Shown in pieces: positions 4,030 through 32,085 of a stretch of 64,000 nucleotides of DNA. Both the position numbers and the translations under genes were made by a program. Under the pieces are notes generated by a model. It saw only the letters and a list, made by a program, of their open reading frames with translations, was not told the origin of the DNA and searched no databases. Numbering within the stretch: position 1 is the stretch's first letter; every line of letters starts with the position of its first letter. This DNA is from Mytilus galloprovincialis (Eukaryota). The DNA lies in contig NC_134841.1 in NCBI RefSeq assembly GCF_965363235.1, positions 74,589,723 to 74,653,722 of the forward strand, given 5' to 3'.

Positions 4030-4724
4030 TCTCAACAAACTTCCCAGATTAACAACACATTTGGTACTTCTCGGCATATTTCTACGGCAATGTTCCGAAC
4101 CAGACCTAGCTCATTTTAAAAGATATTGACCTGGACTACTCCTTCCTTAAATATTTTTTTGTGATCCGGGCACCTCGGCCATAGTAAGGATTCAAAGTTG
4201 TGTTTTAACGAACTTTTCATTTCAACCACACAATCGGTACTTTTCGGCATCTACCTACGGCAAAGTTCCGAACCGGACCTAGCTCATTTTAAAGGTATTA
4301 ACCCAAGCTATTCCCCACTTAAATATTTTTCTGGGATCCGGGCCCGTCTGGCCACCACAGAGGTTCAAAGTTGCCAATTTACGTATTTTCCATATCAACC
4401 ACACATTCGGTACTCCTCGACATATCCCTACGGCAAAGTTCCGAACCGGACCTAGCTCATTTCAAAGGTATTGATCCAAGCTATTTGCCAGTCAAATATT
4501 TTTCTGGAATCCGGGCCCGTCTGGCCACCACAGAGGTTCAAAGGTGCCCCTTAACGTAATTTTCCGTATTAACCATATGCATACATTCGGTACTTTTCGG
4601 CATATACCAACGGCAAAGTTCCGAACCGGACCTAGCTCATTTTAAAGGTATTGACCCAAGCTATTCCCCACTTAAATATTTTTCTGGGATCCGGGCCCGT
4701 CTGGCCACCACAGAGGTTCAAAGT
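4030..4724 (+). repeat. Short array (~4 monomers) of the ~175-bp satellite; distal monomers diverged, proximal ones near-identical to the big arrays
   Basis: Repeating cggcaaagttccgaaccggacctagctcatttyaaaggtattgaYccaagctattYcc...ttttctgggatccgggcccgtctggccaccacagaggttcaaag. Overlapping ORFs 4198-4455 and 4371-4559 translate to the same peptides as the ORFs in the large arrays. Confidence 0.85.
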
Positions 4725-5355
4725 CGTTTTAGGGTGGTCACCGTCATTTAAGCAGTCTCTGGTAGGTGTTGATTATTAATTTCTTTTCTTTTTTGGCTTT
4801 CCATAAGTATTTCTATGTATATTTCTATATGTTTCTGAAGTAATTGGATTGTGTTTCATATTTTATATATTAAATTACATCTTTGGTGAATCCTCTGTAA
4901 TGTTTTATTGATAAAAATCTATATAACATAAAGACAAATATACAACTTGTATCAGGGTTTATATTCGAGGACAACGAAAATTTATGGCAGCCTGAAGGGG
5001 TCATAGAATGGTATCTTTTCCCTCAGGCTTTATAGTGATTTTCAACTAAATTTAAATATTGAACCGACGGCTAGCAGTCGGTTGGATATTGAATATTAAT
5101 TATCGAATGTCAAATAAAGGACAGATTGCTTACATACATATTTAAAACGGAATTAAATGCTTTAGAAATTACCAGAAACCGTGAAATTGTCGATTCCGCT
5201 GTTAGATTGCATTTAACTAAGATTTAGCGATTTTTGGAACGTTTGAGTCTCACGCAGTTTTTTGGTTTTTAGACATATCGTCAAAATTGGCTGCTGGAAA
5301 AAAGTAGCTGCTATCTTGATTGGCCGATAAAAGTGGCTGCCAGCTTGAGTCTGGT
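4725..5355 (+). mobile_element. Conserved ~620-bp satellite-flanking module, copy 1 (candidate terminus of a satellite-carrying Helitron/MgE-like element)
   Basis: The same sequence (agtcgt(t/c)ttagggtggtcaccgtcatttaagcagtctctggtag ... gtggctgccagcttgagtctggt) recurs at 44695-45333 (+) and reverse-complemented at 12464-13100. It is always joined to the satellite at the identical junction. It contains the palindrome aaccgacggctagcagtcggtt. Confidence 0.6.
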
Positions 5356-6367: not shown

Positions 6368-6384
6368 TATAAAATGTATACTTA

Positions 6385-6575
6385 ATGTTAATAAGAAAAC
6401 TATCCAACACAGTCTCCGTATTAGGCATGAAATGTTAATAATAAAACTATCCAACACAGTCTCCATATTAGGCATGAAATGTTAATAATAAAACTATCCA
6501 ACACAGTCTCCATATAAGGCATGAAATATTAATAAGAAAACTATCCAACACAGGCTCCATATAAGGCGGATTTAA
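6385..6575. repeat. ~49-bp tandem repeat, ~3.8 copies
   Basis: The unit taataaNaaaactatccaacacagtctccRtatWaggcatgaaatRt is repeated head-to-tail. Confidence 0.75.
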
Positions 6576-6960: not shown

Positions 6961-8850
6961 TATCTCTGGGCAGTGGTGATTGTAGAACGAGCTTACTTTG
7001 TTTTAAAACATTGCTACGATAAGGGTGATGATTTAACTATTAATCGCAATGCCCAATATTTCATGTTTTCAGCTTTAAGTGGCCTCTGACTTGACGTGGC
7101 TCTCCCCTTCTAAAAAAAACCAAAACCAAACCCAAACAAACCTTCAATTGGTTTCGGACCGTGAAGCGGTTTGTTGCACTTTCATGCCAACTAGGGATAT
7201 CAATGTATCGAATATTTCAGAGTCATTGCATACCATGACCTAAAGGCTATTTGTTTTTAGTATTCCGTTACATTTTCAAATGAACGTTCGTATTGATGTC
7301 TATATAATATATACATAGACAGCTTCCTTTATAGCGTTATGTGTGTGTGTGTGTGTGTGTGAATCGTTTTATTTGTTTTTGTTATTTTGTTGAAATTATA
7401 TAATATATGTATGTCCATATATATCGTACTTAAAAATGGGGTTTAGTCAAGTCTACAGATTATATTGGTGGTGTTGTTTTATAAAAAGGTGGACACAAGT
7501 TTCATACAAAAAAAAATCATATATTACTAACGTATTCATGCTAACATTTGTGCAACAATACTATTTTTATAGTTCTAACATTCTTTTACATTTTGTCATT
7601 GAATTATGGACCGATCGAGTGTAATTTAACTTCTATTTCTCATTTGTTCTTTATGGTATGTTGACAAAGCTTTCCCAAAAATATCTTTATATGTTTCTTC
7701 ATGTTATTGCATAGTTAAATAGAAAATATTTTTAACTATAGTTTCCTTAGTTATTTTTGTCATTTTCATACATAACTGAGTTGATGTAACATTACCAGTC
7801 ATCACTAGGGATGATCGAGATATTGTACGAAATGTCCCAAATAAAAACCACATCAACAAAATAAGATGAACTCCGCACATGTCTTTCTGTTATAGAACGG
7901 ATTATAAAAGACGATTTTAATATTTCTACAATTTTAACTCTGTGAATATGTTGATTCTTTTAGGCCATATCGATCTTGAATATGATTTTTTTTTTACAGT
8001 TACAACAATATTAAATAAAAAGTAAAAGCATTGATTTTTACCGTTTTGAATAACAATAACTGGCAATATAACGTATTAAACAAGTAACTTTTCATTGAAT
8101 TTTTGAGATAAAAAAAAAGAAGAAAAAGATGCATCATGGTTAAGGATGTTCGCTCTTGTTGTTTTTAAATTTTTGTCATAAATTTTGAATTGTCGGGTTT
8201 TATCGATGTAATGCCAGTTAAAAAAAATTGCCCGCTCACCCCTACGTTTCTTTTTATAAATCTTATAAAATGCTTGTTATTTTTTCATATTTTTTTTTAA
8301 AGAAAACGTTACCAATGATAAGTGGATGAAAAATCTAGAGGGATTCATTTTCCGCCAAATTTTCAATGGCAACGAACCTTGATTCTTTTCTCCTTTTTAG
8401 CTCTATTATTTATGAACTATCAATTTGTAACGTCTTTTAAAAAGCTTGTTATTTTGAAACCGAGTAGCGAACAACATTAAAAGAGGGGGCGAAAGATACT
8501 AGGGGTACAGTCAAAATCATAAATCGAAAAAGACAAACAGACAAATAATATTATCCTGATTTAGAGTAATTTCTCGCAATTTGATTGGCTGATATTGTCC
8601 TAATAAATTTCAGTACAATTTTTTATCACGTCAATTGGAATTATCTCCCTTATTTATTACGTCAATTGAAATTATCTCCCTTATACCATTGACCTAATAA
8701 AAAAAATGAGTTGCTTTAATCATAATATTTTTTTTATTTTTCATAGTTTTAGATTAAATATCTAAAATACATTTGTTGATGTTCTAAAATTGGAATTATA
8801 ATTTCAATATAATAATATGTAATATAACAAAATCAGGATAAATTCGTTAC

Positions 8851-8978
8851 ACAGTGTTCAATTGTCCTAATACGAAATTTATCGGGTCAATAAAATTCAT
8901 ATCGGGTTTGGTTTCGCCTCACCCGATATGAATTTTATTGACCCGATAAATTCTCGTATTAGGACAATTGCACACTGT
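8851..8978. repeat. Large near-perfect palindrome (foldback): ~57-bp arms, 13-nt loop
   Basis: Left arm acagtgttcaattgtcctaatacgaaatttatcgggtcaataaaattcatatcgggt. Loop ttggtttcgcctc. Right arm is its reverse complement with 1 substitution and 1 indel. Confidence 0.75.
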
Positions 8979-9662
8979 AACTAATAGTACACAAGAAACA
9001 ACATAGAAAACTAAAGACTGAGCAACACGAACCCCTTCCTTGTGAACAGCAACCCTATCAAGGAAATCATGATAGGAAATATAAGCGCGAGAATATCGTA
9101 TCAATTGGGAGATATATACTCCGTATGCAGGCGCTACTGGAATGTTTCTACATAGAAATGGAAAGTTCACAATTGGGAAGCTGAAATCATTTCGGTTGTC
9201 GTTATGTAAGTCAAGATATGAGGCAGACTTAAATGTATCTGTTGTATTCTTTATCTCTAGTTCGATGGGATGGATGCGTTCAACATAGTCACCAAATTCT
9301 CAATTATTTAGTGTAGAGAGAACAACACCTAAAGGATATTGCTAACGTTTTATTTTTCTTCCTAAGAAGTTCCTATATGAAGTCAGTTAAATTACTCATA
9401 TCCTTTTGTAGTAGTGATAAAATATTTTTAAAATAGTCACAATAAATAAAACAAATCAGGCAAATTGCTAATCGTGTGTAAAAGGTATATTTCACTACAT
9501 GATTCACAGCTTGTAGGATATACATGCAATGAAATTTGGTAAAAAAAAATATAACGTTCTATTGAACTCTGAAATTGTTGCAATTTAGATGGATTCCAGG
9601 CCGATATCCTTTTTTTACAATACATCTTTTGCAGTTGTTAACCACGTTATCGGAACTGTGTA

Positions 9663-11506
9663 CTAACAGCGTCCGTACAATATAGGTCCACTAGCATTCG
9701 CAACTATAATTTTTTCATTCTTTACATCAAACTCGAGTCCAAAAGGATTATTAATTCCGTAATCTTTCCCAAGCAGCTTTCTTGCGTGTTTTCCATCCGA
9801 CGACAGTACAATTATACCATTGTTACCAGAAGAAGCCAGAGGCGGATTTAGGGGGGGGCAGGGGGCCCGGGCCCCCCTTTTTGGGAAAAAATGTGGTTGC
9901 TTATATAGGGAATCACTGAAGCGTGACTGGAGCGGGCCCCCTCTTAGGTCAGTCAGTGGGCCCCCACTTATGAAAATTTCTGGATCCGCCACTGGAAGCA
10001 ATATACACGTTTGAGTCTTTATCTATAGATATCCCTCGCGGACAAAGAACTGATTGATCTTTGTATTCCCACATCTTCTCTCCAGTCAATGAGCAGCATG
10101 TAACTGTATGGTGTAAGCTATTGGTATAAAATATCTTGTCTTTAGATGTTGTTATAAAACTCCAGTTTGTCAAGGTTTCGTCTTTAACCAAGGTAGAAGA
10201 GCAATTATCCAACACATTTACCTTCTGTATACCCAAGCCAGAATTACAGTATAATAAGTGGCCATCTCTGTAACATATACCGAAACAGTAACTGGTTGTC
10301 TTTATCGTGCTTTCAATTGAAATTTGTTAAAATGTTGATGATTGGAATTTGATTGGAAAATTGAAATGTAACAGCAACCGTCTTGTCATCGATACAAGTA
10401 ACATCTAATGGGTAGGAGCTTGACAATGATATGTAATTCTTTAAGGTTCCATCTTTGTTTAAGATCAGAAGACGTTGTTGTTTGTAGCCTAACAGAAAGA
10501 TATCTCCCGTACTAGAAAAAGAACACCCTCTGACACCAGTAAAGTTTTCCAATGTCATGTTGATATCATTAATATTGGTAGTTGTAGGTGATGCATGATG
10601 AATAGTTATAATCTGTGCTTGTTTGTCATTCTCAGTCTGCAAAACCACCAACGGAGAACTCGATTCAACAGATATTGAACAAAATGAAGTTACAGTAGAC
10701 AATACGTCGGATAGCTTGTCCTCAATGTTATAGTTCAAGTCTATCTTCTGTGAACTACCATCCTCAAATAATGACTGCATTAATATTTCATGTTTCTTAA
10801 TTTCTGTTTCAATCATTTTACTCCCAAGAAATGCCTGTAGGTCTGACGCATATTCTTTGACAGCTGACATATTAGTTTGCAATATATCAATATTTTCCGT
10901 ATGTTTAGCAAGTTTTCTCAGTAAATCTTCTATTTGTGCTTTAACTTTCTCTTCTGCAGAATATAAATCCTGATGTATTAGTTGTTCTAACCCGTCAAGG
11001 TGCGCGTTAATTTTATTATGAACCTTTTTTATTTCATCGCAAATTTTCTGCCTTTGATTCTGGATTTCTTCAAGATTTTGTTTCCGATCTTTTACAACTT
11101 TCTCGGCATTTATTTTGATATATTTCAGATTTTCATCAAGACTCTTCAATAAGACTGAAGTCTTTGCCGTTTGTATGACATTCTCCAGCGACAATATCCC
11201 AACACATTCAGCATGGTTGGACTGAATACACAGTGGACAACCGATACTTTCATGTTGCGGACAATACATCTGAAATTTTCTGTCATGCTGTGAACAGTAT
11301 GGTGATATTTTTGCTATTGAGGGAGGTAATTGTTTATAGTTGTCGACAGATATAACATCATGGTTACGTGAGGCTTTCGATGCATTCTGATACTGCAGAC
11401 ATTGAGATCAGAGTCCTTCGTCACATTCAGGGCACCAGTAGTCAGCATTTGTTGTCGTGTGCTGAGACTCACAAATACCACACGAAACTGTGCTCGATGA
11501 TGCCAT
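9663..11506 (-). pseudogene. TRIM-like (B-box1, B-box2, coiled-coil, NHL repeats; no RING) gene carrying three lesions; likely pseudogene
   Basis: Minus-strand frame from ATG at 11506: MASSSTVSCGICESQHTTTNADYWCPECDEGL[TGA]SQCLQYQNASKASRNHDVISVDNYKQLPPSIAKISPYCSQHDRKFQMYCPQHESIGCPLCIQSNHAEC... is B-box1 then B-box2. A long coiled-coil follows (ORF 10313-11269), then NHL-like repeats (..GICYRDGHLLYCNSGLGIQKVNV.., ..GISIDKDSNVYIASSG.., ..NNGIIVLSSDGKHARKLLGKDYGINNPFGLEFDVKNEKIIVANASGPILYGRC*). Lesions: (1) in-frame TGA at 11408-11410 where a B-box zinc-ligand Cys is expected. (2) A 1-nt frameshift near 10313-10326. (3) The MITE at 9836-9995. Confidence 0.6.
9836..9995 (+). mobile_element. MITE insertion (copy B, 160 bp) inside the NHL-repeat coding region of the TRIM-like gene; 3-bp target-site duplication AAG
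   Basis: Element ccagaggcggatttagggggg...cagtcagtgggcccccacttatgaaaatttctggatccgccactgg. It is flanked by aag at 9833-9835 and 9996-9998. Element plus one TSD is 163 nt (3n+1). Removing it fuses the upstream and downstream NHL reading frames exactly (..NVYIASSG|NNGIIVLSSDGK..). Confidence 0.65.
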
Positions 11507-11829
11507 TGAAGTCTTGATCTGCTAAAAATAAGACAATGTCCATTAGTCAAATTGTAGTTGCAGTTTGTTTGATGTGTACATTTATGTACATGTATACACA
11601 TCCATTGCTTAAGTGGTTGATTTATATATCACAGTTCTTGTTTCCTCAATTATCATATCTGGTCCTTTAAAATTGATAATACTAGTTGTGAAACAATGGC
11701 GTTTAACAAAAATATAAACCGTATAGTAAATTGTATATCATTTAGGCCTATGAACTTGCTTACCAGAAGAACTTGATCAAGATTTTTGAAGGCGTAAATA
11801 TGGTATCAATTAGAACAATGCCGTTGTAT

Positions 11830-11937
11830 CAATCTAATTAAAAACCGATCTCTCATCGCTCCTGTTTCTGATATGTCGAGCTACCACGCGACATATCAGA
11901 AACAGGAGCAATGAGAGATCGGTTTTTAATTAGATTG
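11830..11937. repeat. Near-perfect hairpin/foldback: 48-bp arms (1 mismatch), 11-nt loop, ~320 bp upstream of the TRIM-like start codon
   Basis: caatctaattaaaaaccgatctctcatcgctcctgtttctgatatgtcg | agctaccacgc | gacatatcagaaacaggagcaatgagagatcggtttttaattagattg. Confidence 0.75.
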
Positions 11938-12463
11938 ACTTTTGGATAAGATGGGTTTTAGTCAGCACAAACATGTTCACACAAAAGGCAAAGGCGCATA
12001 ATAAAAATCGACCGATAATGAATATCAAAGGGGCATAAGCTACCAACTCAACAATAAAAACAATCGGATCTTTTTTTCAAACATTTATGAAAGTGGAGTA
12101 AAGAAATAATATTTCGCTATTAGCAGTCTGTTTTGTTCAATTAAAGGCTAAAATATATCGCTGATGTATAATTGACTTGCAAGTCAACAGTTCATGCTAA
12201 TTTGGACCTTCGTGGAGATCGGTTGTGCATGTGTTTACCATGTAGTTCATTAATTGAAAGAATGTCAACATTAAAAAGTAAAACAAAGGAGACACCGTCA
12301 CACCTAGTGTTTATTTTTCAGAGTAAAAGATTCAATTGATTGCATGCTTCTTAATTGTCATCTGAATTTTTATCTGCTAAATGACAAAACATAACTTCAG
12401 ACTACCAGGCGCCTGTATCGCTATCTAGCTTTTCAAAACAATCACTGAAAGAGGAATATTTTC

Positions 12464-13100
12464 ACCAGACTCAAGCTGGCAGCCACTTTCATCGGCCAAT
12501 CAAGATAGCAGCCACTTTTTTCCAGCAGCCAATTTTGACGATATGTCTAAAAACCAAAAAACTGCGTGAGGCTCAAACGTTCCAAAAATCGCTAAATCTT
12601 AGTTAAATGCAATCTAACAGCGGAAATCGACAATTTCACGGTTTCTGCTAATTTCTAAAGCATTTCATTCCGTTTTAAATATGTATGTAAGCGATCTGTC
12701 CTTTATTTGACATTCGATAATTGATATTCAATATCCAACCGACTGCTAGCCGTCGGTTCAATATTTCAATTTAGTTGAAAATCACTATAAAGCCTGAGAG
12801 AAAAGATACCATTTTATGACCCCTTCAAGCTGTCATAAATTTTCGTTGTCCTCGAATATAAACCCTGATACAAGTTGTATATTTGTCTTTATGTTATATA
12901 GATTTTTATCAATAAAACATTACAGAGGATTCACCAAAGATGTAATTTAATATATAAAATATGAAACAAAATCCAATTACTCCAGAAACATATAGAAATA
13001 TACATAGAAATACTTATGGAAAGCCAAAAAAAAAAAAAGAAATTAATAGTGAACACCTACCAGAGACTGCTTAAATGACGGTGACCACCCTAAGACGACT
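12464..13100 (-). mobile_element. Satellite-flanking module, copy 2 (reverse complement of 4725-5355)
   Basis: accagactcaagctggcagccacttt...ctaccagagactgcttaaatgacggtgaccaccctaagacgac is the reverse complement of the module at 4725-5355 and 44695-45333. It is joined to the satellite at the same junction. Confidence 0.6.
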
Positions 13101-16100
13101 TTGGACCTCTGTGGTGGCCAGACGGGCCCGGATCCCAGAAAAATATTTAAGTGGCAAATAGCTTGGATCAATACCTTTGAAATGAGCTAGGTCCGGTTCG
13201 GAACTTTGCCGTAGGGATATGTCGAGGAGTACCGAATGTGTGGTTGATATGGAAAATACGTAAATTGGCAACTTTGAACCTCTGTGGTGGCCAGACGGGC
13301 CCGGATCCCAGAAAAATATTTAAGTGGGGAATAGCTTGGGTCAATACCTTTAAAATGAGCTAGGTCCGGTTCGGAACTTTGCCGTTGGTATATGCCGAAA
13401 AGTACCGAATGTATGCATATGGTTAATACGGAAAATTACGTTATGGGGCACCTTTGAACCTCTGTGGTGGCCAGACGGGCCCGGATCCCAGAAACATATT
13501 TAAGTGGCAAATAGCTTGGATCAATACCTTTGAAATGAGCTAGGTCCGGTTCGGAACTTTGCCGTAGGGATATGTCGAGGAGTACCGAATGTGTGGTTGA
13601 TATGGAAAATACGTAAATGGGCATTTTGAAGCTCTGTGGTGGCCAGACGGGCCCGGATCCCAGAAAAATATTTAAGTGGCAAATAGCTTGGATCAATACC
13701 TTTGAAATGAGCTAGGTCCGGTTCGGAACTTTGCCGTAGGGATATGTCGAGGAGTACCGAATGTGTGGTTGATATGGAAAATACGTAAATTGGCAACTTT
13801 GAACCTCTGTGGTGGCCAGACGGGCCCGGATCCCAGAAAAATATTTAAGTGGGGAATAGCTTGGGTCAATACCTTTAAAATGAGCTAGGTCCGGTTCGGA
13901 ACTTTGCCGTTGGTATATGCCGAAAAGTACCGAATGTATGCATATGGTTAATACGGAAAATTACGTTATGGGGCACCTTTGAACCTCTGTGGTGGCCAGA
14001 CGGGCCCGGATCCCAGAAACATATTTAAGTGGCAAATAGCTTGGATCAATACCTTTGAAATGAGCTAGGTCCGGTTCGGAACTTTGCCGTAGGGATATGT
14101 CGAGGAGTACCGAATGTGTGGTTGATATGGAAAATACGTAAATGGGCATTTTGAAGCTCTGTGGTGGCCAGACGGGCCCGGATCCCAGAAAAATATTTAA
14201 GTGGCAAATAGCTTGGATCAATACCTTTGAAATGAGCTAGGTCCGGTTCGGAACTTTGCCGTAGGGATATGTCGAGGAGTACCGAATGTGTGGTTGATAT
14301 GGAAAATACGTAAATTGGCAACTTTGAACCTCTGTGGTGGCCAGACGGGCCCGGATCCCAGAAAAATATTTAAGTGGGGAATAGCTTGGGTCAATACCTT
14401 TAAAATGAGCTAGGTCCGGTTCGGAACTTTGCCGTTGGTATATGCCGAAAAGTACCGAATGTATGCATATAGTTAATACGGAAAATTACGTTATGGGGCA
14501 CCTTTGAACCTCTGTGGTGGCCAGACGGGCCCGGATCCCAGAAACATATTTAAGTGGCAAATAGCTTGGATCAATACCTTTGAAATGAGCTAGGTCCGGT
14601 TCGGAACTTTGCCGTAGGGATATGTCGAGGAGTACCGAATGTGTGGTTGATATGGAAAATACGTAAATGGGCATTTTGAAGCTCTGTGGTGGCCAGACGG
14701 GCCCGGATCCCAGAAAAATATTTAAGTGGCAAATAGCTTGGATCAATACCTTTGAAATGAGCTAGGTCCGGTTCGGAACTTTGCCGTAGGGATATGTCGA
14801 GGAGTACCGAATGTGTGGTTGATATGGAAAATACGTAAATTGGCAACTTTGAACCTCTGTGGTGGCCAGACGGGCCCGGATCCCAGAAAAATATTTAAGT
14901 GGGGAATAGCTTGGGTCAATACCTTTAAAATGAGCTAGGTCCGGTTCGGAACTTTGCCGTTGGTATATGCCGAAAAGTACCGAATGTATGCATATGGTTA
15001 ATACGGAAAATTACGTTATGGGGCACCTTTGAACCTCTGTGGTGGCCAGACGGGCCCGGATCCCAGAAACATATTTAAGTGGCAAATAGCTTGGATCAAT
15101 ACCTTTGAAATGAGCTAGGTCCGGTTCGGAACTTTGCCGTAGGGATATGTCGAGGAGTACCGAATGTGTGGTTGATATGGAAAATACGTAAATGGGCATT
15201 TTGAAGCTCTGTGGTGGCCAGACGGGCCCGGATCCCAGAAAAATATTTAAGTGGCAAATAGCTTGGATCAATACCTTTGAAATGAGCTAGGTCCGGTTCG
15301 GAACTTTGCCGTAGGGATATGTCGAGGAGTACCGAATGTGTGGTTGATATGGAAAATACGTAAATTGGCAACTTTGAACCTCTGTGGTGGCCAGACGGGC
15401 CCGGATCCCAGAAAAATATTTAAGTGGGGAATAGCTTGGGTCAATACCTTTAAAATGAGCTAGGTCCGGTTCGGAACTTTGCCGTTGGTATATGCCGAAA
15501 AGTACCGAATGTATGCATATGGTTAATACGGAAAATTACGTTATGGGGCACCTTTGAACCTCTGTGGTGGCCAGACGGGCCCGGATCCCAGAAACATATT
15601 TAAGTGGCAAATAGCTTGGATCAATACCTTTGAAATGAGCTAGGTCCGGTTCGGAACTTTGCCGTAGGGATATGTCGAGGAGTACCGAATGTGTGGTTGA
15701 TATGGAAAATACGTAAATGGGCATTTTGAAGCTCTGTGGTGGCCAGACGGGCCCGGATCCCAGAAAAATATTTAAGTGGCAAATAGCTTGGATCAATACC
15801 TTTGAAATGAGCTAGGTCCGGTTCGGAACTTTGCCGTAGGGATATGTCGAGGAGTACCGAATGTGTGGTTGATATGGAAAATACGTAAATTGGCAACTTT
15901 GAACCTCTGTGGTGGCCAGACGGGCCCGGATCCCAGAAAAATATTTAAGTGGGGAATAGCTTGGGTCAATACCTTTAAAATGAGCTAGGTCCGGTTCGGA
16001 ACTTTGCCGTTGGTATATGCCGAAAAGTACCGAATGTATGCATATAGTTAATACGGAAAATTACGTTATGGGGCACCTTTGAACCTCTGTGGTGGCCAGA

Positions 16101-19100
16101 CGGGCCCGGATCCCAGAAACATATTTAAGTGGCAAATAGCTTGGATCAATACCTTTGAAATGAGCTAGGTCCGGTTCGGAACTTTGCCGTAGGGATATGT
16201 CGAGGAGTACCGAATGTGTGGTTGATATGGAAAATACGTAAATGGGCATTTTGAAGCTCTGTGGTGGCCAGACGGGCCCGGATCCCAGAAAAATATTTAA
16301 GTGGCAAATAGCTTGGATCAATACCTTTGAAATGAGCTAGGTCCGGTTCGGAACTTTGCCGTAGGGATATGTCGAGGAGTACCGAATGTGTGGTTGATAT
16401 GGAAAATACGTAAATTGGCAACTTTGAACCTCTGTGGTGGCCAGACGGGCCCGGATCCCAGAAAAATATTTAAGTGGGGAATAGCTTGGGTCAATACCTT
16501 TAAAATGAGCTAGGTCCGGTTCGGAACTTTGCCGTTGGTATATGCCGAAAAGTACCGAATGTATGCATATGGTTAATACGGAAAATTACGTTATGGGGCA
16601 CCTTTGAACCTCTGTGGTGGCCAGACGGGCCCGGATCCCAGAAACATATTTAAGTGGCAAATAGCTTGGATCAATACCTTTGAAATGAGCTAGGTCCGGT
16701 TCGGAACTTTGCCGTAGGGATATGTCGAGGAGTACCGAATGTGTGGTTGATATGGAAAATACGTAAATGGGCATTTTGAAGCTCTGTGGTGGCCAGACGG
16801 GCCCGGATCCCAGAAAAATATTTAAGTGGCAAATAGCTTGGATCAATACCTTTGAAATGAGCTAGGTCCGGTTCGGAACTTTGCCGTAGGGATATGTCGA
16901 GGAGTACCGAATGTGTGGTTGATATGGAAAATACGTAAATTGGCAACTTTGAACCTCTGTGGTGGCCAGACGGGCCCGGATCCCAGAAAAATATTTAAGT
17001 GGGGAATAGCTTGGGTCAATACCTTTAAAATGAGCTAGGTCCGGTTCGGAACTTTGCCGTTGGTATATGCCGAAAAGTACCGAATGTATGCATATGGTTA
17101 ATACGGAAAATTACGTTATGGGGCACCTTTGAACCTCTGTGGTGGCCAGACGGGCCCGGATCCCAGAAACATATTTAAGTGGCAAATAGCTTGGATCAAT
17201 ACCTTTGAAATGAGCTAGGTCCGGTTCGGAACTTTGCCGTAGGGATATGTCGAGGAGTACCGAATGTGTGGTTGATATGGAAAATACGTAAATGGGCATT
17301 TTGAAGCTCTGTGGTGGCCAGACGGGCCCGGATCCCAGAAAAATATTTAAGTGGCAAATAGCTTGGATCAATACCTTTGAAATGAGCTAGGTCCGGTTCG
17401 GAACTTTGCCGTAGGGATATGTCGAGGAGTACCGAATGTGTGGTTGATATGGAAAATACGTAAATTGGCAACTTTGAACCTCTGTGGTGGCCAGACGGGC
17501 CCGGATCCCAGAAAAATATTTAAGTGGGGAATAGCTTGGGTCAATACCTTTAAAATGAGCTAGGTCCGGTTCGGAACTTTGCCGTTGGTATATGCCGAAA
17601 AGTACCGAATGTATGCATATGGTTAATACGGAAAATTACGTTATGGGGCACCTTTGAACCTCTGTGGTGGCCAGACGGGCCCGGATCCCAGAAACATATT
17701 TAAGTGGCAAATAGCTTGGATCAATACCTTTGAAATGAGCTAGGTCCGGTTCGGAACTTTGCCGTAGGGATATGTCGAGGAGTACCGAATGTGTGGTTGA
17801 TATGGAAAATACGTAAATGGGCATTTTGAAGCTCTGTGGTGGCCAGACGGGCCCGGATCCCAGAAAAATATTTAAGTGGCAAATAGCTTGGATCAATACC
17901 TTTGAAATGAGCTAGGTCCGGTTCGGAACTTTGCCGTAGGGATATGTCGAGGAGTACCGAATGTGTGGTTGATATGGAAAATACGTAAATTGGCAACTTT
18001 GAACCTCTGTGGTGGCCAGACGGGCCCGGATCCCAGAAAAATATTTAAGTGGGGAATAGCTTGGGTCAATACCTTTAAAATGAGCTAGGTCCGGTTCGGA
18101 ACTTTGCCGTTGGTATATGCCGAAAAGTACCGAATGTATGCATATAGTTAATACGGAAAATTACGTTATGGGGCACCTTTGAACCTCTGTGGTGGCCAGA
18201 CGGGCCCGGATCCCAGAAACATATTTAAGTGGCAAATAGCTTGGATCAATACCTTTGAAATGAGCTAGGTCCGGTTCGGAACTTTGCCGTAGGGATATGT
18301 CGAGGAGTACCGAATGTGTGGTTGATATGGAAAATACGTAAATGGGCATTTTGAAGCTCTGTGGTGGCCAGACGGGCCCGGATCCCAGAAAAATATTTAA
18401 GTGGCAAATAGCTTGGATCAATACCTTTGAAATGAGCTAGGTCCGGTTCGGAACTTTGCCGTAGGGATATGTCGAGGAGTACCGAATGTGTGGTTGATAT
18501 GGAAAATACGTAAATTGGCAACTTTGAACCTCTGTGGTGGCCAGACGGGCCCGGATCCCAGAAAAATATTTAAGTGGGGAATAGCTTGGGTCAATACCTT
18601 TAAAATGAGCTAGGTCCGGTTCGGAACTTTGCCGTTGGTATATGCCGAAAAGTACCGAATGTATGCATATGGTTAATACGGAAAATTACGTTATGGGGCA
18701 CCTTTGAACCTCTGTGGTGGCCAGACGGGCCCGGATCCCAGAAACATATTTAAGTGGCAAATAGCTTGGATCAATACCTTTGAAATGAGCTAGGTCCGGT
18801 TCGGAACTTTGCCGTAGGGATATGTCGAGGAGTACCGAATGTGTGGTTGATATGGAAAATACGTAAATGGGCATTTTGAAGCTCTGTGGTGGCCAGACGG
18901 GCCCGGATCCCAAAAATATTTAAGTGGCAAATAGCTTGGATCAATACCTTTGAAATGAGCTAGGTCCGGTTCGGAACTTTGCCGTAGGGATATGTCGAGG
19001 AGTACCGAATGTGTGGTTGATATGGAAAATACGTAAATTGGCAACTTTGAACCTCTGTGGTGGCCAGACGGGCCCGGATCCCAGAAAAATATTTAAGTGG

Positions 19101-22100
19101 GGAATAGCTTGGGTCAATACCTTTAAAATGAGCTAGGTCCGGTTCGGAACTTTGCCGTTGGTATATGCCGAAAAGTACCGAATGTATGCATATGGTTAAT
19201 ACGGAAAATTACGTTATGGGGCACCTTTGAACCTCTGTGGTGGCCAGACGGGCCCGGATCCCAGAAACATATTTAAGTGGCAAATAGCTTGGATCAATAC
19301 CTTTGAAATGAGCTAGGTCCGGTTCGGAACTTTGCCGTAGGGATATGTCGAGGAGTACCGAATGTGTGGTTGATATGGAAAATACGTAAATGGGCATTTT
19401 GAAGCTCTGTGGTGGCCAGACGGGCCCGGATCCCAGAAAAATATTTAAGTGGCAAATAGCTTGGATCAATACCTTTGAAATGAGCTAGGTCCGGTTCGGA
19501 ACTTTGCCGTAGGGATATGTCGAGGAGTACCGAATGTGTGGTTGATATGGAAAATACGTAAATTGGCAACTTTGAACCTCTGTGGTGGCCAGACGGGCCC
19601 GGATCCCAGAAAAATATTTAAGTGGGGAATAGCTTGGGTCAATACCTTTAAAATGAGCTAGGTCCGGTTCGGAACTTTGCCGTTGGTATATGCCGAAAAG
19701 TACCGAATGTATGCATATGGTTAATACGGAAAATTACGTTATGGGGCACCTTTGAACCTCTGTGGTGGCCAGACGGGCCCGGATCCCAGAAACATATTTA
19801 AGTGGCAAATAGCTTGGATCAATACCTTTGAAATGAGCTAGGTCCGGTTCGGAACTTTGCCGTAGGGATATGTCGAGGAGTACCGAATGTGTGGTTGATA
19901 TGGAAAATACGTAAATGGGCATTTTGAAGCTCTGTGGTGGCCAGACGGGCCCGGATCCCAGAAAAATATTTAAGTGGCAAATAGCTTGGATCAATACCTT
20001 TGAAATGAGCTAGGTCCGGTTCGGAACTTTGCCGTAGGGATATGTCGAGGAGTACCGAATGTGTGGTTGATATGGAAAATACGTAAATTGGCAACTTTGA
20101 ACCTCTGTGGTGGCCAGACGGGCCCGGATCCCAGAAAAATATTTAAGTGGGGAATAGCTTGGGTCAATACCTTTAAAATGAGCTAGGTCCGGTTCGGAAC
20201 TTTGCCGTTGGTATATGCCGAAAAGTACCGAATGTATGCATATAGTTAATACGGAAAATTACGTTATGGGGCACCTTTGAACCTCTGTGGTGGCCAGACG
20301 GGCCCGGATCCCAGAAACATATTTAAGTGGCAAATAGCTTGGATCAATACCTTTGAAATGAGCTAGGTCCGGTTCGGAACTTTGCCGTAGGGATATGTCG
20401 AGGAGTACCGAATGTGTGGTTGATATGGAAAATACGTAAATGGGCATTTTGAAGCTCTGTGGTGGCCAGACGGGCCCGGATCCCAGAAAAATATTTAAGT
20501 GGCAAATAGCTTGGATCAATACCTTTGAAATGAGCTAGGTCCGGTTCGGAACTTTGCCGTAGGGATATGTCGAGGAGTACCGAATGTGTGGTTGATATGG
20601 AAAATACGTAAATTGGCAACTTTGAACCTCTGTGGTGGCCAGACGGGCCCGGATCCCAGAAAAATATTTAAGTGGGGAATAGCTTGGGTCAATACCTTTA
20701 AAATGAGCTAGGTCCGGTTCGGAACTTTGCCGTTGGTATATGCCGAAAAGTACCGAATGTATGCATATGGTTAATACGGAAAATTACGTTATGGGGCACC
20801 TTTGAACCTCTGTGGTGGCCAGACGGGCCCGGATCCCAGAAACATATTTAAGTGGCAAATAGCTTGGATCAATACCTTTGAAATGAGCTAGGTCCGGTTC
20901 GGAACTTTGCCGTAGGGATATGTCGAGGAGTACCGAATGTGTGGTTGATATGGAAAATACGTAAATGGGCATTTTGAAGCTCTGTGGTGGCCAGACGGGC
21001 CCGGATCCCAGAAAAATATTTAAGTGGCAAATAGCTTGGATCAATACCTTTGAAATGAGCTAGGTCCGGTTCGGAACTTTGCCGTAGGGATATGTCGAGG
21101 AGTACCGAATGTGTGGTTGATATGGAAAATACGTAAATTGGCAACTTTGAACCTCTGTGGTGGCCAGACGGGCCCGGATCCCAGAAAAATATTTAAGTGG
21201 GGAATAGCTTGGGTCAATACCTTTAAAATGAGCTAGGTCCGGTTCGGAACTTTGCCGTTGGTATATGCCGAAAAGTACCGAATGTATGCATATGGTTAAT
21301 ACGGAAAATTACGTTATGGGGCACCTTTGAACCTCTGTGGTGGCCAGACGGGCCCGGATCCCAGAAACATATTTAAGTGGCAAATAGCTTGGATCAATAC
21401 CTTTGAAATGAGCTAGGTCCGGTTCGGAACTTTGCCGTAGGGATATGTCGAGGAGTACCGAATGTGTGGTTGATATGGAAAATACGTAAATGGGCATTTT
21501 GAAGCTCTGTGGTGGCCAGACGGGCCCGGATCCCAGAAAAATATTTAAGTGGCAAATAGCTTGGATCAATACCTTTGAAATGAGCTAGGTCCGGTTCGGA
21601 ACTTTGCCGTAGGGATATGTCGAGGAGTACCGAATGTGTGGTTGATATGGAAAATACGTAAATTGGCAACTTTGAACCTCTGTGGTGGCCAGACGGGCCC
21701 GGATCCCAGAAAAATATTTAAGTGGGGAATAGCTTGGGTCAATACCTTTAAAATGAGCTAGGTCCGGTTCGGAACTTTGCCGTTGGTATATGCCGAAAAG
21801 TACCGAATGTATGCATATGGTTAATACGGAAAATTACGTTATGGGGCACCTTTGAACCTCTGTGGTGGCCAGACGGGCCCGGATCCCAGAAACATATTTA
21901 AGTGGCAAATAGCTTGGATCAATACCTTTGAAATGAGCTAGGTCCGGTTCGGAACTTTGCCGTAGGGATATGTCGAGGAGTACCGAATGTGTGGTTGATA
22001 TGGAAAATACGTAAATGGGCATTTTGAAGCTCTGTGGTGGCCAGACGGGCCCGGATCCCAGAAAAATATTTAAGTGGCAAATAGCTTGGATCAATACCTT

Positions 22101-25100
22101 TGAAATGAGCTAGGTCCGGTTCGGAACTTTGCCGTAGGGATATGTCGAGGAGTACCGAATGTGTGGTTGATATGGAAAATACGTAAATTGGCAACTTTGA
22201 ACCTCTGTGGTGGCCAGACGGGCCCGGATCCCAGAAAAATATTTAAGTGGGGAATAGCTTGGGTCAATACCTTTAAAATGAGCTAGGTCCGGTTCGGAAC
22301 TTTGCCGTTGGTATATGCCGAAAAGTACCGAATGTATGCATATGGTTAATACGGAAAATTACGTTATGGGGCACCTTTGAACCTCTGTGGTGGCCAGACG
22401 GGCCCGGATCCCAGAAACATATTTAAGTGGCAAATAGCTTGGATCAATACCTTTGAAATGAGCTAGGTCCGGTTCGGAACTTTGCCGTAGGGATATGTCG
22501 AGGAGTACCGAATGTGTGGTTGATATGGAAAATACGTAAATGGGCATTTTGAAGCTCTGTGGTGGCCAGACGGGCCCGGATCCCAGAAAAATATTTAAGT
22601 GGCAAATAGCTTGGATCAATACCTTTGAAATGAGCTAGGTCCGGTTCGGAACTTTGCCGTAGGGATATGTCGAGGAGTACCGAATGTGTGGTTGATATGG
22701 AAAATACGTAAATTGGCAACTTTGAACCTCTGTGGTGGCCAGACGGGCCCGGATCCCAGAAAAATATTTAAGTGGGGAATAGCTTGGGTCAATACCTTTA
22801 AAATGAGCTAGGTCCGGTTCGGAACTTTGCCGTTGGTATATGCCGAAAAGTACCGAATGTATGCATATAGTTAATACGGAAAATTACGTTATGGGGCACC
22901 TTTGAACCTCTGTGGTGGCCAGACGGGCCCGGATCCCAGAAACATATTTAAGTGGCAAATAGCTTGGATCAATACCTTTGAAATGAGCTAGGTCCGGTTC
23001 GGAACTTTGCCGTAGGGATATGTCGAGGAGTACCGAATGTGTGGTTGATATGGAAAATACGTAAATGGGCATTTTGAAGCTCTGTGGTGGCCAGACGGGC
23101 CCGGATCCCAGAAAAATATTTAAGTGGCAAATAGCTTGGATCAATACCTTTGAAATGAGCTAGGTCCGGTTCGGAACTTTGCCGTAGGGATATGTCGAGG
23201 AGTACCGAATGTGTGGTTGATATGGAAAATACGTAAATTGGCAACTTTGAACCTCTGTGGTGGCCAGACGGGCCCGGATCCCAGAAAAATATTTAAGTGG
23301 GGAATAGCTTGGGTCAATACCTTTAAAATGAGCTAGGTCCGGTTCGGAACTTTGCCGTTGGTATATGCCGAAAAGTACCGAATGTATGCATATGGTTAAT
23401 ACGGAAAATTACGTTATGGGGCACCTTTGAACCTCTGTGGTGGCCAGACGGGCCCGGATCCCAGAAACATATTTAAGTGGCAAATAGCTTGGATCAATAC
23501 CTTTGAAATGAGCTAGGTCCGGTTCGGAACTTTGCCGTAGGGATATGTCGAGGAGTACCGAATGTGTGGTTGATATGGAAAATACGTAAATGGGCATTTT
23601 GAAGCTCTGTGGTGGCCAGACGGGCCCGGATCCCAGAAAAATATTTAAGTGGCAAATAGCTTGGATCAATACCTTTGAAATGAGCTAGGTCCGGTTCGGA
23701 ACTTTGCCGTAGGGATATGTCGAGGAGTACCGAATGTGTGGTTGATATGGAAAATACGTAAATTGGCAACTTTGAACCTCTGTGGTGGCCAGACGGGCCC
23801 GGATCCCAGAAAAATATTTAAGTGGGGAATAGCTTGGGTCAATACCTTTAAAATGAGCTAGGTCCGGTTCGGAACTTTGCCGTTGGTATATGCCGAAAAG
23901 TACCGAATGTATGCATATGGTTAATACGGAAAATTACGTTATGGGGCACCTTTGAACCTCTGTGGTGGCCAGACGGGCCCGGATCCCAGAAACATATTTA
24001 AGTGGCAAATAGCTTGGATCAATACCTTTGAAATGAGCTAGGTCCGGTTCGGAACTTTGCCGTAGGGATATGTCGAGGAGTACCGAATGTGTGGTTGATA
24101 TGGAAAATACGTAAATGGGCATTTTGAAGCTCTGTGGTGGCCAGACGGGCCCGGATCCCAGAAAAATATTTAAGTGGCAAATAGCTTGGATCAATACCTT
24201 TGAAATGAGCTAGGTCCGGTTCGGAACTTTGCCGTAGGGATATGTCGAGGAGTACCGAATGTGTGGTTGATATGGAAAATACGTAAATTGGCAACTTTGA
24301 ACCTCTGTGGTGGCCAGACGGGCCCGGATCCCAGAAAAATATTTAAGTGGGGAATAGCTTGGGTCAATACCTTTAAAATGAGCTAGGTCCGGTTCGGAAC
24401 TTTGCCGTTGGTATATGCCGAAAAGTACCGAATGTATGCATATGGTTAATACGGAAAATTACGTTATGGGGCACCTTTGAACCTCTGTGGTGGCCAGACG
24501 GGCCCGGATCCCAGAAACATATTTAAGTGGCAAATAGCTTGGATCAATACCTTTGAAATGAGCTAGGTCCGGTTCGGAACTTTGCCGTAGGGATATGTCG
24601 AGGAGTACCGAATGTGTGGTTGATATGGAAAATACGTAAATGGGCATTTTGAAGCTCTGTGGTGGCCAGACGGGCCCGGATCCCAGAAAAATATTTAAGT
24701 GGCAAATAGCTTGGATCAATACCTTTGAAATGAGCTAGGTCCGGTTCGGAACTTTGCCGTAGGGATATGTCGAGGAGTACCGAATGTGTGGTTGATATGG
24801 AAAATACGTAAATTGGCAACTTTGAACCTCTGTGGTGGCCAGACGGGCCCGGATCCCAGAAAAATATTTAAGTGGGGAATAGCTTGGGTCAATACCTTTA
24901 AAATGAGCTAGGTCCGGTTCGGAACTTTGCCGTTGGTATATGCCGAAAAGTACCGAATGTATGCATATGGTTAATACGGAAAATTACGTTATGGGGCACC
25001 TTTGAACCTCTGTGGTGGCCAGACGGGCCCGGATCCCAGAAACATATTTAAGTGGCAAATAGCTTGGATCAATACCTTTGAAATGAGCTAGGTCCGGTTC

Positions 25101-28100
25101 GGAACTTTGCCGTAGGGATATGTCGAGGAGTACCGAATGTGTGGTTGATATGGAAAATACGTAAATGGGCATTTTGAAGCTCTGTGGTGGCCAGACGGGC
25201 CCGGATCCCAGAAAAATATTTAAGTGGCAAATAGCTTGGATCAATACCTTTGAAATGAGCTAGGTCCGGTTCGGAACTTTGCCGTAGGGATATGTCGAGG
25301 AGTACCGAATGTGTGGTTGATATGGAAAATACGTAAATTGGCAACTTTGAACCTCTGTGGTGGCCAGACGGGCCCGGATCCCAGAAAAATATTTAAGTGG
25401 GGAATAGCTTGGGTCAATACCTTTAAAATGAGCTAGGTCCGGTTCGGAACTTTGCCGTTGGTATATGCCGAAAAGTACCGAATGTATGCATATAGTTAAT
25501 ACGGAAAATTACGTTATGGGGCACCTTTGAACCTCTGTGGTGGCCAGACGGGCCCGGATCCCAGAAACATATTTAAGTGGCAAATAGCTTGGATCAATAC
25601 CTTTGAAATGAGCTAGGTCCGGTTCGGAACTTTGCCGTAGGGATATGTCGAGGAGTACCGAATGTGTGGTTGATATGGAAAATACGTAAATGGGCATTTT
25701 GAAGCTCTGTGGTGGCCAGACGGGCCCGGATCCCAGAAAAATATTTAAGTGGCAAATAGCTTGGATCAATACCTTTGAAATGAGCTAGGTCCGGTTCGGA
25801 ACTTTGCCGTAGGGATATGTCGAGGAGTACCGAATGTGTGGTTGATATGGAAAATACGTAAATTGGCAACTTTGAACCTCTGTGGTGGCCAGACGGGCCC
25901 GGATCCCAGAAAAATATTTAAGTGGGGAATAGCTTGGGTCAATACCTTTAAAATGAGCTAGGTCCGGTTCGGAACTTTGCCGTTGGTATATGCCGAAAAG
26001 TACCGAATGTATGCATATGGTTAATACGGAAAATTACGTTATGGGGCACCTTTGAACCTCTGTGGTGGCCAGACGGGCCCGGATCCCAGAAACATATTTA
26101 AGTGGCAAATAGCTTGGATCAATACCTTTGAAATGAGCTAGGTCCGGTTCGGAACTTTGCCGTAGGGATATGTCGAGGAGTACCGAATGTGTGGTTGATA
26201 TGGAAAATACGTAAATGGGCATTTTGAAGCTCTGTGGTGGCCAGACGGGCCCGGATCCCAGAAAAATATTTAAGTGGCAAATAGCTTGGATCAATACCTT
26301 TGAAATGAGCTAGGTCCGGTTCGGAACTTTGCCGTAGGGATATGTCGAGGAGTACCGAATGTGTGGTTGATATGGAAAATACGTAAATTGGCAACTTTGA
26401 ACCTCTGTGGTGGCCAGACGGGCCCGGATCCCAGAAAAATATTTAAGTGGGGAATAGCTTGGGTCAATACCTTTAAAATGAGCTAGGTCCGGTTCGGAAC
26501 TTTGCCGTTGGTATATGCCGAAAAGTACCGAATGTATGCATATGGTTAATACGGAAAATTACGTTATGGGGCACCTTTGAACCTCTGTGGTGGCCAGACG
26601 GGCCCGGATCCCAGAAACATATTTAAGTGGCAAATAGCTTGGATCAATACCTTTGAAATGAGCTAGGTCCGGTTCGGAACTTTGCCGTAGGGATATGTCG
26701 AGGAGTACCGAATGTGTGGTTGATATGGAAAATACGTAAATGGGCATTTTGAAGCTCTGTGGTGGCCAGACGGGCCCGGATCCCAGAAAAATATTTAAGT
26801 GGCAAATAGCTTGGATCAATACCTTTGAAATGAGCTAGGTCCGGTTCGGAACTTTGCCGTAGGGATATGTCGAGGAGTACCGAATGTGTGGTTGATATGG
26901 AAAATACGTAAATTGGCAACTTTGAACCTCTGTGGTGGCCAGACGGGCCCGGATCCCAGAAAAATATTTAAGTGGGGAATAGCTTGGGTCAATACCTTTA
27001 AAATGAGCTAGGTCCGGTTCGGAACTTTGCCGTTGGTATATGCCGAAAAGTACCGAATGTATGCATATGGTTAATACGGAAAATTACGTTATGGGGCACC
27101 TTTGAACCTCTGTGGTGGCCAGACGGGCCCGGATCCCAGAAACATATTTAAGTGGCAAATAGCTTGGATCAATACCTTTGAAATGAGCTAGGTCCGGTTC
27201 GGAACTTTGCCGTAGGGATATGTCGAGGAGTACCGAATGTGTGGTTGATATGGAAAATACGTAAATGGGCATTTTGAAGCTCTGTGGTGGCCAGACGGGC
27301 CCGGATCCCAGAAAAATATTTAAGTGGCAAATAGCTTGGATCAATACCTTTGAAATGAGCTAGGTCCGGTTCGGAACTTTGCCGTAGGGATATGTCGAGG
27401 AGTACCGAATGTGTGGTTGATATGGAAAATACGTAAATTGGCAACTTTGAACCTCTGTGGTGGCCAGACGGGCCCGGATCCCAGAAAAATATTTAAGTGG
27501 GGAATAGCTTGGGTCAATACCTTTAAAATGAGCTAGGTCCGGTTCGGAACTTTGCCGTTGGTATATGCCGAAAAGTACCGAATGTATGCATATGGTTAAT
27601 ACGGAAAATTACGTTATGGGGCACCTTTGAACCTCTGTGGTGGCCAGACGGGCCCGGATCCCAGAAACATATTTAAGTGGCAAATAGCTTGGATCAATAC
27701 CTTTGAAATGAGCTAGGTCCGGTTCGGAACTTTGCCGTAGGGATATGTCGAGGAGTACCGAATGTGTGGTTGATATGGAAAATACGTAAATGGGCATTTT
27801 GAAGCTCTGTGGTGGCCAGACGGGCCCGGATCCCAGAAAAATATTTAAGTGGCAAATAGCTTGGATCAATACCTTTGAAATGAGCTAGGTCCGGTTCGGA
27901 ACTTTGCCGTAGGGATATGTCGAGGAGTACCGAATGTGTGGTTGATATGGAAAATACGTAAATTGGCAACTTTGAACCTCTGTGGTGGCCAGACGGGCCC
28001 GGATCCCAGAAAAATATTTAAGTGGGGAATAGCTTGGGTCAATACCTTTAAAATGAGCTAGGTCCGGTTCGGAACTTTGCCGTTGGTATATGCCGAAAAG

Positions 28101-28700
28101 TACCGAATGTATGCATATGGTTAATACGGAAAATTACGTTAAGGGGCACCTTTGAACCTCTGTGTTGGCCAGACGGGCCCGGATCCCAGAAAAATATTTC
28201 AGTGGGGAATAGCTTGGGTCAATACCTTTAAAATGAGATAGGTCCGGTTTGGAACTTTGGCGTTGGTATATGCCGAAAAGTACCGAATGTGTGGTTAATA
28301 CGGAAATTGACGTTAAGGGGCACCCTTGAACCTCTGTGGTGGCCAGACGGTCCCGGATCCCAGAAAATATTTAAGTTGGTAATAGCCTTGGTCAGTACCT
28401 TTTAAAATCAGCCAGGTCCGGTTCGGAACTTTGCCGTAGGGATATGTCGAGGAATACCGAATGTATTGTTGATATAGAAAATACATGTACGTAAATGGAC
28501 AATTTTGAACCTCTGTGGTGGCCAGACAGTGCCGGTTCCCAGAAAAATTTTGAAGTGGCGAATAGCTCGGGTCAATACCTTTAAAATGAGATAGGTCAGG
28601 TTCGGAACTTTGCCGTAGAGATAAGCCTAGGATTTCCGAAAGCATGTGTGGTTAATATGAAAAGTACGTTAAGGCACACCTTTGAATCCCTATAATGGCC
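13095..28700 (-). repeat. Satellite array: 525-bp higher-order repeat (three ~175-bp monomer variants), ~30 HOR copies that are virtually identical; last ~600 bp (28100-28700) progressively degenerate
   Basis: The ORF track repeats with exact 525-nt spacing (13436, 13961, 14486 ... 27609). Monomers contain GGATCC, GGGCCC and TGGCCA sites. A single G/A variant (atatGgtt vs atatAgtt) recurs at spacings of 3-5 HORs. Confidence 0.92.
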
Positions 28701-31687: not shown

Positions 31688-31733
31688 ACGCCAGACGCGC
31701 GTTTCGTCTACATAAGACTCATCAGTGACGCTC
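31688..31733 (-). ncRNA. Hammerhead ribozyme, minimal type-I topology (copy 1)
   Basis: Minus strand: GAGCGUCA-CUGAUGA-GUC-UUAUGUA-GAC-GAAAC-GCGC-GUC|UGGCGU. Conserved CUGAUGA and GAAA cores are present. Stem II is GUC/GAC. Short helix III is AC/GU. GUC cleavage triplet. Helix I is GCGUCA with UGGCGU (6 bp including 2 G-U pairs). Confidence 0.6.
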
Positions 31734-32039: not shown

Positions 32040-32085
32040 ACGCCAGACGAGCGTTTCGTCTACTTAAGACTCATCAGTGACGCTC
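32040..32085 (-). ncRNA. Hammerhead ribozyme (copy 2; stem II loop UUAAGUA, helix III loop GCUC)
   Basis: Same core as copy 1, 352 nt away. Compensatory or neutral changes are confined to loops. Confidence 0.55.

Follow-up and report, generated by a model that had tools for sequence, protein, structure and literature searches.

How does an almost perfect palindrome come to lie beside a gene of the mussel Mytilus galloprovincialis? The stretch of 64,000 nucleotides that was analysed (the window) carries such a sequence directly upstream of a TRIM-like gene. The original prediction saw in it a very young foldback or MITE-like insertion, a cruciform-forming regulatory or fragile site, or the precursor of a hairpin RNA.

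The hairpin and its surroundings

11830-11937: near-perfect hairpin, 108 bp, the inserted unit

A repeat search of the window delimits two arms of 50 nt (11829-11878 and 11889-11938) that are 98% complementary and separated by a spacer of 10 nt, a trivial difference from the 48-bp arms and 11-nt loop first described. The outermost T/A pair (11829/11938) is host sequence common to the M. edulis orthologue, so that the inserted unit is exactly 11830-11937, the same coordinates as had been predicted. The sole mismatch between the arms is a C at 11857 opposite an A at 11910. The existence of an almost perfect hairpin is confirmed by this search, by shuffling and by folding. A 50-mer with three or fewer mismatches was found in none of 100 shuffles of the window. 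Folding of both strands, which had been proposed as a check, gives a single long, stable stem on either one, with energies of -87.7 and -92.1 kcal/mol against about -33 ± 4 kcal/mol for shuffled sequences (z about -14.4; 0 of 200 shuffles equally good). The hairpin lies 324 bp from the ATG at 11506 and 521 bp outside the satellite-bearing block that starts at 12459, in good agreement with the predicted position about 320 bp 5' of the ATG, between the gene and the satellite flank.

The gene itself, described in the original prediction as TRIM-like, is a pseudogene in the window:

9666-11506, minus strand: TRIM-like pseudogene with B-box, coiled-coil and NHL parts; the hairpin lies 324 bp upstream of it
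9837-9994: 158-bp GC-rich MITE in the NHL coding region, TIRs CAGAGGCGGAT / CAGTGGCGGAT (CAGWGGCGGAT), 5-bp target-site duplication (TSD) GAAGC, absent from L001 and L002

Here L001 (M. galloprovincialis UYJE01006536.1) and L002 (M. edulis chromosome OY782959.1) are the orthologous loci with which the window was compared. The reading frame from the ATG at 11506 meets a TGA within the B-box (CDEGL*SQC), the frame is shifted near 10323, and the MITE interrupts the NHL region. An ORF of 318 aa (10313-11269, minus strand) is 95% identical to M. galloprovincialis protein P0001 and 92% to M. edulis protein P0002, and its strong matches are all Mytilus B-box/NHL proteins. The annotated orthologues P0001 and P0002 (in L001 and L002, respectively) have odd N-termini in which the B-box region is passed over or misread. 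L002 also encodes, on the downstream side of the TRIM-like orthologue, a gene of at least 1,369 aa (14421-21212) with MULE transposase, ZSWIM and C48 peptidase domains, to which nothing in the window upstream of 6843 was seen to align. The hairpin is without demonstrated function and is situated in what was the promoter region, now decayed, of a pseudogene.

Several other repeats and insertions are found in the window:

12459-45333: insertion of 32,875 bp whose ends and satellite arrays are both inverted, 4-bp TSD AATA; L002 joins window position 12458 to 45334-45338
8554-8984: insertion of about 430 bp, TSD TAATA, absent from L001 and L002, with a 31-bp tandem duplication at 8622-8684
8851-8978: second long hairpin, about 128 bp, the 3' part of the 8554-8984 insertion; 32-nt arms (100%) nested in 30-nt arms (90%), 13-nt loop
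58579-59896: 33-bp minisatellite, 40 copies
6384-6567: 47-bp tandem unit, 3.9 copies
31654-32472: 352-bp tandem unit, 2.3 copies, in the centre of the 32,875-bp insertion

The largest of these is bounded by inverted repeats of about 640 bp (12464-13100 vs. 45333-44693, 96%) and contains arrays of a 172/173-bp satellite in opposite orientation (13098-28669 and 37242-44695) around a centre of 8.6 kb. The inverted satellite flank of the original prediction is the left end of this insertion. Its empty site in L002 reads GAGGAATA followed directly by CTTGTGC. The whole looks like a giant foldback-like mobile unit that carries satellite DNA. The satellite monomer includes GGGCCC (an ApaI site) and presumably recalls the ApaI satellite of Mytilus; the literature searched contained nothing about ApaI-type satellites of Mytilus. 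A third, short copy of the insertion arm is present at 4051-5355, consisting of a 637-bp flank (5355-4722, 96.7% to 12464-13100) and just 3.9 satellite monomers (4051-4724). There is no copy of the hairpin arm inside the insertion, with which the hairpin shares no sequence.

Palindromes of this kind were expected to be rare. The second hairpin at 8851-8978 speaks against this, as do the long inverted repeats that occur every 15-20 kb or so in six other Mytilus loci. About 12 long inverted repeats were counted in 130 kb of other Mytilus loci, including one with 50-nt arms of 98% identity in an M. edulis locus (L089) and others with arms of 154 to 677 nt elsewhere.

The 383-bp element and its second copy

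A marine-metagenome contig collection was scanned with a 30-mer of the hairpin arm, and one record matched. This record, ENA ORXM01087750 (L003), is a contig of 1,050 bp with a SPAdes coverage of 4.4, in which the arm occurs twice, in inverted orientation, about 285-290 nt apart. The two occurrences belong to an element of 383 bp (L003 113-495) with terminal inverted repeats (TIRs) of 94 nt that differ by 1 mismatch. The centre of about 195 nt is unique and not palindromic. The hairpin corresponds to nucleotides 1-49 of this element joined to nucleotides 325-383, with 105 of 108 positions identical, and can be divided as follows:

11830-11878, plus strand: left arm, the first 49 nt of the left TIR; 49/49 identical to L003 113-161
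11879-11888, plus strand: spacer or loop AGCTACCACG, right-TIR nucleotides 59-50 from the right end (L003 437-446, ATCTCCCACG), with substitutions at 11880 and 11883
11889-11937, plus strand: right arm, made up of the terminal 49 nt of the right TIR (L003 447-495), bearing the sole arm mismatch at 11910

All three differences fall in the right-hand part, where window positions 11879-11937 match L003 437-495 at 56 of 59 nt. The window has an A at position 11910, where both L003 and the left arm imply a G; the context changes from GAGCGATG to GAGCAATG, a CpG transition (CG to CA). CG to CA is the commonest mutation in animal genomes with CpG methylation. The central 275 bp are missing from the window; the breakpoints lie 49 nt from one end and 59 nt from the other, and the deletion junction between 11878 and 11879 shows 1 nt of microhomology (G). 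Homology starts and stops at the same nucleotides in the window and in L003, giving shared termini CAATC...GATTG (CAATCTAA) between unrelated flanks.

The element does not appear to encode anything. It has no ORF longer than 72 aa, and its six-frame translation, used as a protein query that would also catch mis-called ORFs on other copies, found no homologue in a collection of 5.8 billion proteins. Rfam found nothing on L003. There are no direct subrepeats in the arms, and CpG is not depleted.

No further copy was found in the 64-kb window and about 150 kb of other bivalve loci (about 215 kb in total). The extra loci in this search were six bivalve loci of about 110 kb, four of them from Mytilus and two from unidentified bivalve-like ENA contigs. 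The number of known copies is thus two, and any status as a family would rest on these. A search of the window and the orthologous loci for copies of the arm or a local donor yielded chance matches of at most 13 nt, including an 11-mer in the satellite. Two ORFs of the window were looked up by exact match in the assembly collection to find allelic contigs, and neither is on record there.

The contig that carries the full-length element is itself unusual, since its right part is bacterial. Positions 808-1050 encode the N-terminus of PBP2/MrdA (TIGR03423, 1.4e-12), whose best genomic relative is a Saprospiraceae MAG with 65% aa identity, too distant to serve as the source of an empty site at the DNA level. 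Positions 616-747 encode the last 42 or so residues of MreD, with the first ~130 codons of mreD missing by comparison with relatives. The bacterial, Saprospiraceae-like part therefore amounts to the right 435 bp (616-1050), and everything to the left of about position 615 is non-coding in all frames. The PBP2 fragment was used to search for a longer contig of the same bacterium, and none was found.

The left end, in turn, resembles mussel DNA. Of the 26 nt with which L003 begins (CCTTCGGGCCAGGTGAGCTAAAAAGG), 24 agree with M. edulis L089 (19940-19965); the match is short, and a shuffle test for the left end alone gives p of about 0.01. This stretch is the 3' terminus of an interspersed repeat of Mytilus, which is found at three places:

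L089 19912-19966, L086 13188-13242 and L003 1-26: 3' terminus of the repeat, a stem-loop GCTCACnTGGCC...GGnCAGGTGAGC followed by TAAAAAGG

L086 is thus the second Mytilus copy, and all three sequences cease to be similar at one and the same point. No occurrence of the motif was found in 464 kb of Bacteroidota loci, Rfam found nothing on the L089 repeat, and the literature searched has no printed match to the repeat terminus or to the TIR. In L089, a unit of about 500 bp is arranged in tandem (19000-19886) ahead of the repeat's 3' terminus.

The element also has no match on the bacterial side. The arm 24-mer has 0 matches in the genomes of 185,579 prokaryotic species (one genome each), three patterns that included this 24-mer gave 0 matches in IMG/VR, and a blastn comparison of the 383-bp element with plasmids and phages gave no match. 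This silence across prokaryotes, viruses, plasmids and phages also argues against an origin from a vector or adapter. When the likelihoods of the L003 flanks under mussel and Saprospiraceae Markov models were compared, AT-rich bacterial intergenic DNA scored like mussel DNA.

Either L003 is chimeric, or the host of the element in that contig is not a mussel. Judged by its sequence, L003 is very probably a chimera of mytilid DNA on the left and Saprospiraceae DNA on the right. An mreD gene that lacks its first ~130 codons and ends in a non-coding left part fits such a join, and the Mytilus repeat terminus at the left end places the second copy of the element most likely in mytilid DNA. On the chimeric reading, the element would be a mussel element at a second locus.

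The orthologous site and the missing duplication

Neither L001 nor L002 has the hairpin at the orthologous site, and the sequences immediately adjacent to it in the window are those of the host:

11810-11829, plus strand: left flank (host) TTAGAACAATGCCGTTGTAT, the same in M. edulis L002; the pairing of its final T with 11938 is a coincidence
11938-11957, plus strand: right flank (host) ACTTTTGGATAAGATGGGTT, the same in M. edulis L002; not a direct repeat of the left flank

The site is not cleanly empty in either orthologue. Between the identical flanks, L002 has 85 bp (9424-9340) of unrelated, A-rich sequence with a run of A22, while the corresponding segment of L001 (8460-8627, about 170 bp) is a longer version of this that includes a palindrome of 28 nt and a (TA)n tract. 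The site is thus occupied by 85-170 bp of other sequence, unlike in every haplotype. Around the site, the window is 97-99% identical to L002 and less similar to L001. Since the segment is kept in both the close L002 and the more diverged L001, the state in the window is the derived one. The absence of the hairpin from both loci, with other sequence in its place, points to a recent, lineage-specific combination of deletion and insertion, and the fact that the segment differs in all three haplotypes marks it as a local indel hotspot. The suggestion of a fragile site therefore holds for the replaced host segment, but not for the hairpin itself.

L001 has an insertion of its own here: 1,042 bp (8637-9678) with a 9-bp TSD, CCGTTGTAT, and tandem repeats of about 22 bp, (GAAAGTCGAGTTGCGAGTTAC)n, at one end. 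This insertion begins exactly at the left junction of the window's hairpin, so that two independent events, the L001 insertion and the hairpin, have occurred at the same phosphodiester bond in different haplotypes.

Neither known copy of the element is flanked by a TSD, the hallmark of canonical cut-and-paste insertion. The hairpin in the window lies between ..CCGTTGTAT and ACTTTTGG.., and the element in L003 between ..TATAAAAAG and GATCATAT... Three other insertions in the window (8554-8984, 9837-9994 and 12459-45333) have both TSDs and clean empty sites, which indicates that the missing duplication at the hairpin is real and no artefact of alignment. Its absence is one unusual feature of the hairpin. 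The original prediction had held that an arm unique in the genome and without a flanking TSD would make a transposon origin less likely. The TSD is indeed missing; the arm, however, is not unique, as it has a second copy in L003.

The nature and possible history of the hairpin

The evidence is best explained if the hairpin is what an internal deletion has left of one copy of a non-autonomous, class II-type (TIR, MITE-like) mobile element of Mytilus, a reading that we would give a probability of roughly 0.75 on the basis of sequence comparison. The predicted young foldback or MITE-like insertion is thereby upheld insofar as the hairpin consists of the termini of a 383-bp element with long TIRs and is absent from the orthologous sites; it departs from that description in replacing 85 bp of host DNA without a TSD.

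The closest known counterparts are MITEs, internally deleted TIR transposons and derivatives that consist of little more than two joined ends (TIR-TIR solo-end derivatives), which abortive gap repair produces. Like these, the hairpin is non-coding, has TIRs and identical termini at unrelated loci, is absent from two orthologous sites, has lost its middle with minimal microhomology and folds into a long hairpin. The TIRs lie at the very ends, as expected for a MITE: in the window they are arms of 49 nt, and in the 383-bp form they extend over 94 nt with 1 mismatch. Unlike typical members of this group, however, neither of the two known copies has a fixed-length TSD, and the window copy has replaced 85 bp of host DNA.

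Foldback elements of the FB type have long arms built of short tandem subrepeats and make a 9-bp TSD. The hairpin resembles them in that nearly the whole unit is an inverted repeat, and such repeats are frequent in the Mytilus loci examined. It differs in having arms without subrepeats, no 9-bp TSD and a parent form with a unique centre of ~195 nt, and membership was rejected because direct subrepeats and a TSD are both missing. Helitrons and Helentrons begin with 5'-TC, end with CTRR-3', insert between A and T (or T and T) and have no long TIRs; the 94-nt TIRs, the CAATC/GATTG ends and flanks of T..A and G..G do not fit this pattern. TIR elements of the Spy group (PHIS superfamily), which have been reported from molluscs among other invertebrates, make no TSD on insertion, enter precisely between AAA and TTT of the host and have termini 5'-GGANNNNG-3' (PMC4122938). 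The present element shares with Spy that it is a eukaryotic TIR element inserted without a TSD, but it is not a member: its flanks are ..GTAT/ACTT.. and ..AAAG/GATC.., its termini are CAATCTAA, and host DNA was lost.

A further comparison is with DNA captured as filler during the repair of double-strand breaks. Extrachromosomal or transposon DNA can be captured in this way at end-joined breaks, and the end points of the filler are normally arbitrary. The hairpin is like such filler in combining a host deletion with foreign DNA, blunt junctions and no duplication at a site that is unstable in three haplotypes. It is unlike it in that both ends are exact element termini. The presence of the same exact termini at two loci suggests that the inserted DNA was a molecule excised by a transposase rather than a random fragment.

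A possible course of events can be put together from these comparisons. The loss of the central 275 bp may have been due to hairpin-promoted slippage or to abortive gap repair over the long stem of the TIRs, and may have preceded or followed the arrival at the present locus. A near-symmetric loss at the apex of a stem is a product of palindrome instability, and comparable deletion derivatives are known from Ac/Ds, P and mariner. The element would have arrived at a break in the AT-rich host segment, with its palindrome and poly(A) run, that forms the indel hotspot. At least 85 bp of host DNA would have been lost in the process, and no target-site duplication would have been made. Blunt junctions, the 85-bp host loss and the lack of a duplication favour end-joining capture, or an aberrant or blunt integration, over canonical transposition with staggered cuts. 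This leaves three routes: end-joining capture of an excised element, non-concerted integration of the two ends, or a family that integrates bluntly by nature. One arm would since have gained a single CpG transition, and that there is only one such change suggests a young event.

The choice among these routes rests on two copies, and the last of them is the strongest rival to the preferred reading, though it appears unlikely. Here the hairpin would be a mobile micro-MITE of a transposon family that never makes a TSD, its integration being blunt or precise as in Spy but in another lineage, and the loss of 85 bp of host DNA would be separate or coincident. Both known copies lack a TSD, while two small insertions and one of 32.9 kb in the same window have one, and TIR transposons without TSDs do exist in invertebrates, including molluscs (PMC4122938). 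However, there are only two copies, the flanks are not AAA and TTT, the termini are not GGANNNNG, and the window copy replaces host sequence, unlike a precise integration. Because a TSD is missing from both copies, and because the one other copy known adjoins bacterial genes on its contig, there is also some room, slightly less than for the preceding view, for either a mussel TIR lineage that integrates without a TSD and is unrelated to Spy in target and termini or, more exotically, an element about 97% identical in a Saprospiraceae bacterium and the mussel germ line. We regard it as decidedly improbable that the element is a bacterial one, from Saprospiraceae or their mobilome, whose presence in the mussel assembly would be due to horizontal transfer, contamination or an error of polishing. 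Its sole other copy does lie on a contig with bacterial MreD (C-terminus) and PBP2, a single match at 4.4x is what a single-copy bacterial locus would give, and CpG is not depleted. Yet the prokaryotic genomes, IMG/VR, plasmids and phages contain no match to it, L003 has a truncated mreD with only non-coding sequence to its left and a Mytilus repeat terminus at its left end, and in the window the sequence on either side of the hairpin is 97-99% identical to M. edulis. The orthologous flanks on both sides also led to the rejection of a SMRTbell or other adapter, to which the hairpin is not known to bear any resemblance.

More remote still are two further readings. The palindrome could have been made in place, with no mobile element involved, by a fold-back or template-switch inverted duplication during break repair, which would account for the missing TSD, the replaced host sequence and the location in an indel hotspot that has a small palindrome of its own in L001. 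The odds of this are slight, as the same sequence occurs elsewhere as the ends of a 383-bp element, with the arms 285 nt apart and TIRs that extend to 94 nt; even the loop is TIR sequence, and neither arm resembles local or orthologous sequence. An excision footprint of the P-nucleotide type was rejected as well, since the centre of the palindrome is not at the junction between host and insert. Hardly more credible is a functional hairpin, either a miRNA or endo-siRNA precursor or a cruciform-forming regulatory element of the TRIM-like gene. The near-perfect 49-bp stem is very stable on either strand, and Rfam gives E-values of 1e-7 to 1e-8 to mir-4773 and mir-4433. However, these matches (mir-4773, RF03734, 53.8/51.8 bits with a gathering score of 100; mir-4433, RF04096, 48.5/47.9 bits with a gathering score of 77) are well below threshold and equal on both strands. 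The two models are themselves perfectly palindromic, so that what is shared is the shape, a near-perfect palindromic hairpin scoring on both strands, with no sequence relationship and no conservation. A perfect stem of 49 bp is also atypical for animal pre-miRNAs. The hairpin is missing from the orthologous site in L001 and L002, the L001 haplotype of M. galloprovincialis tolerates a 1-kb insertion at the same position, and the gene downstream is a pseudogene. The regulatory cruciform and the hairpin-RNA precursor of the original prediction thus find no support, and for the latter the sequence evidence suggests a resemblance of form.

The preferred reading makes the hairpin an unclassified MITE-like element and, as far as can be judged from the sequence, an ordinary young transposon scar. 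What remains odd is the lack of a TSD in both copies, the two events at the same junction and the joining of mussel and bacterial sequence in one contig. For the mussel, it is one more young structural variant in a transposon-rich and highly polymorphic genome, at the dead promoter of a pseudogene. The case also brings to light a contig in a public marine metagenome that probably joins mussel and bacterial DNA, and it serves as a worked example of how a striking perfect palindrome can be fully accounted for by the two ends of a long-TIR element minus the middle. If the absence of a TSD held genome-wide, the element would represent a second kind of TSD-less cut-and-paste transposon in animals.
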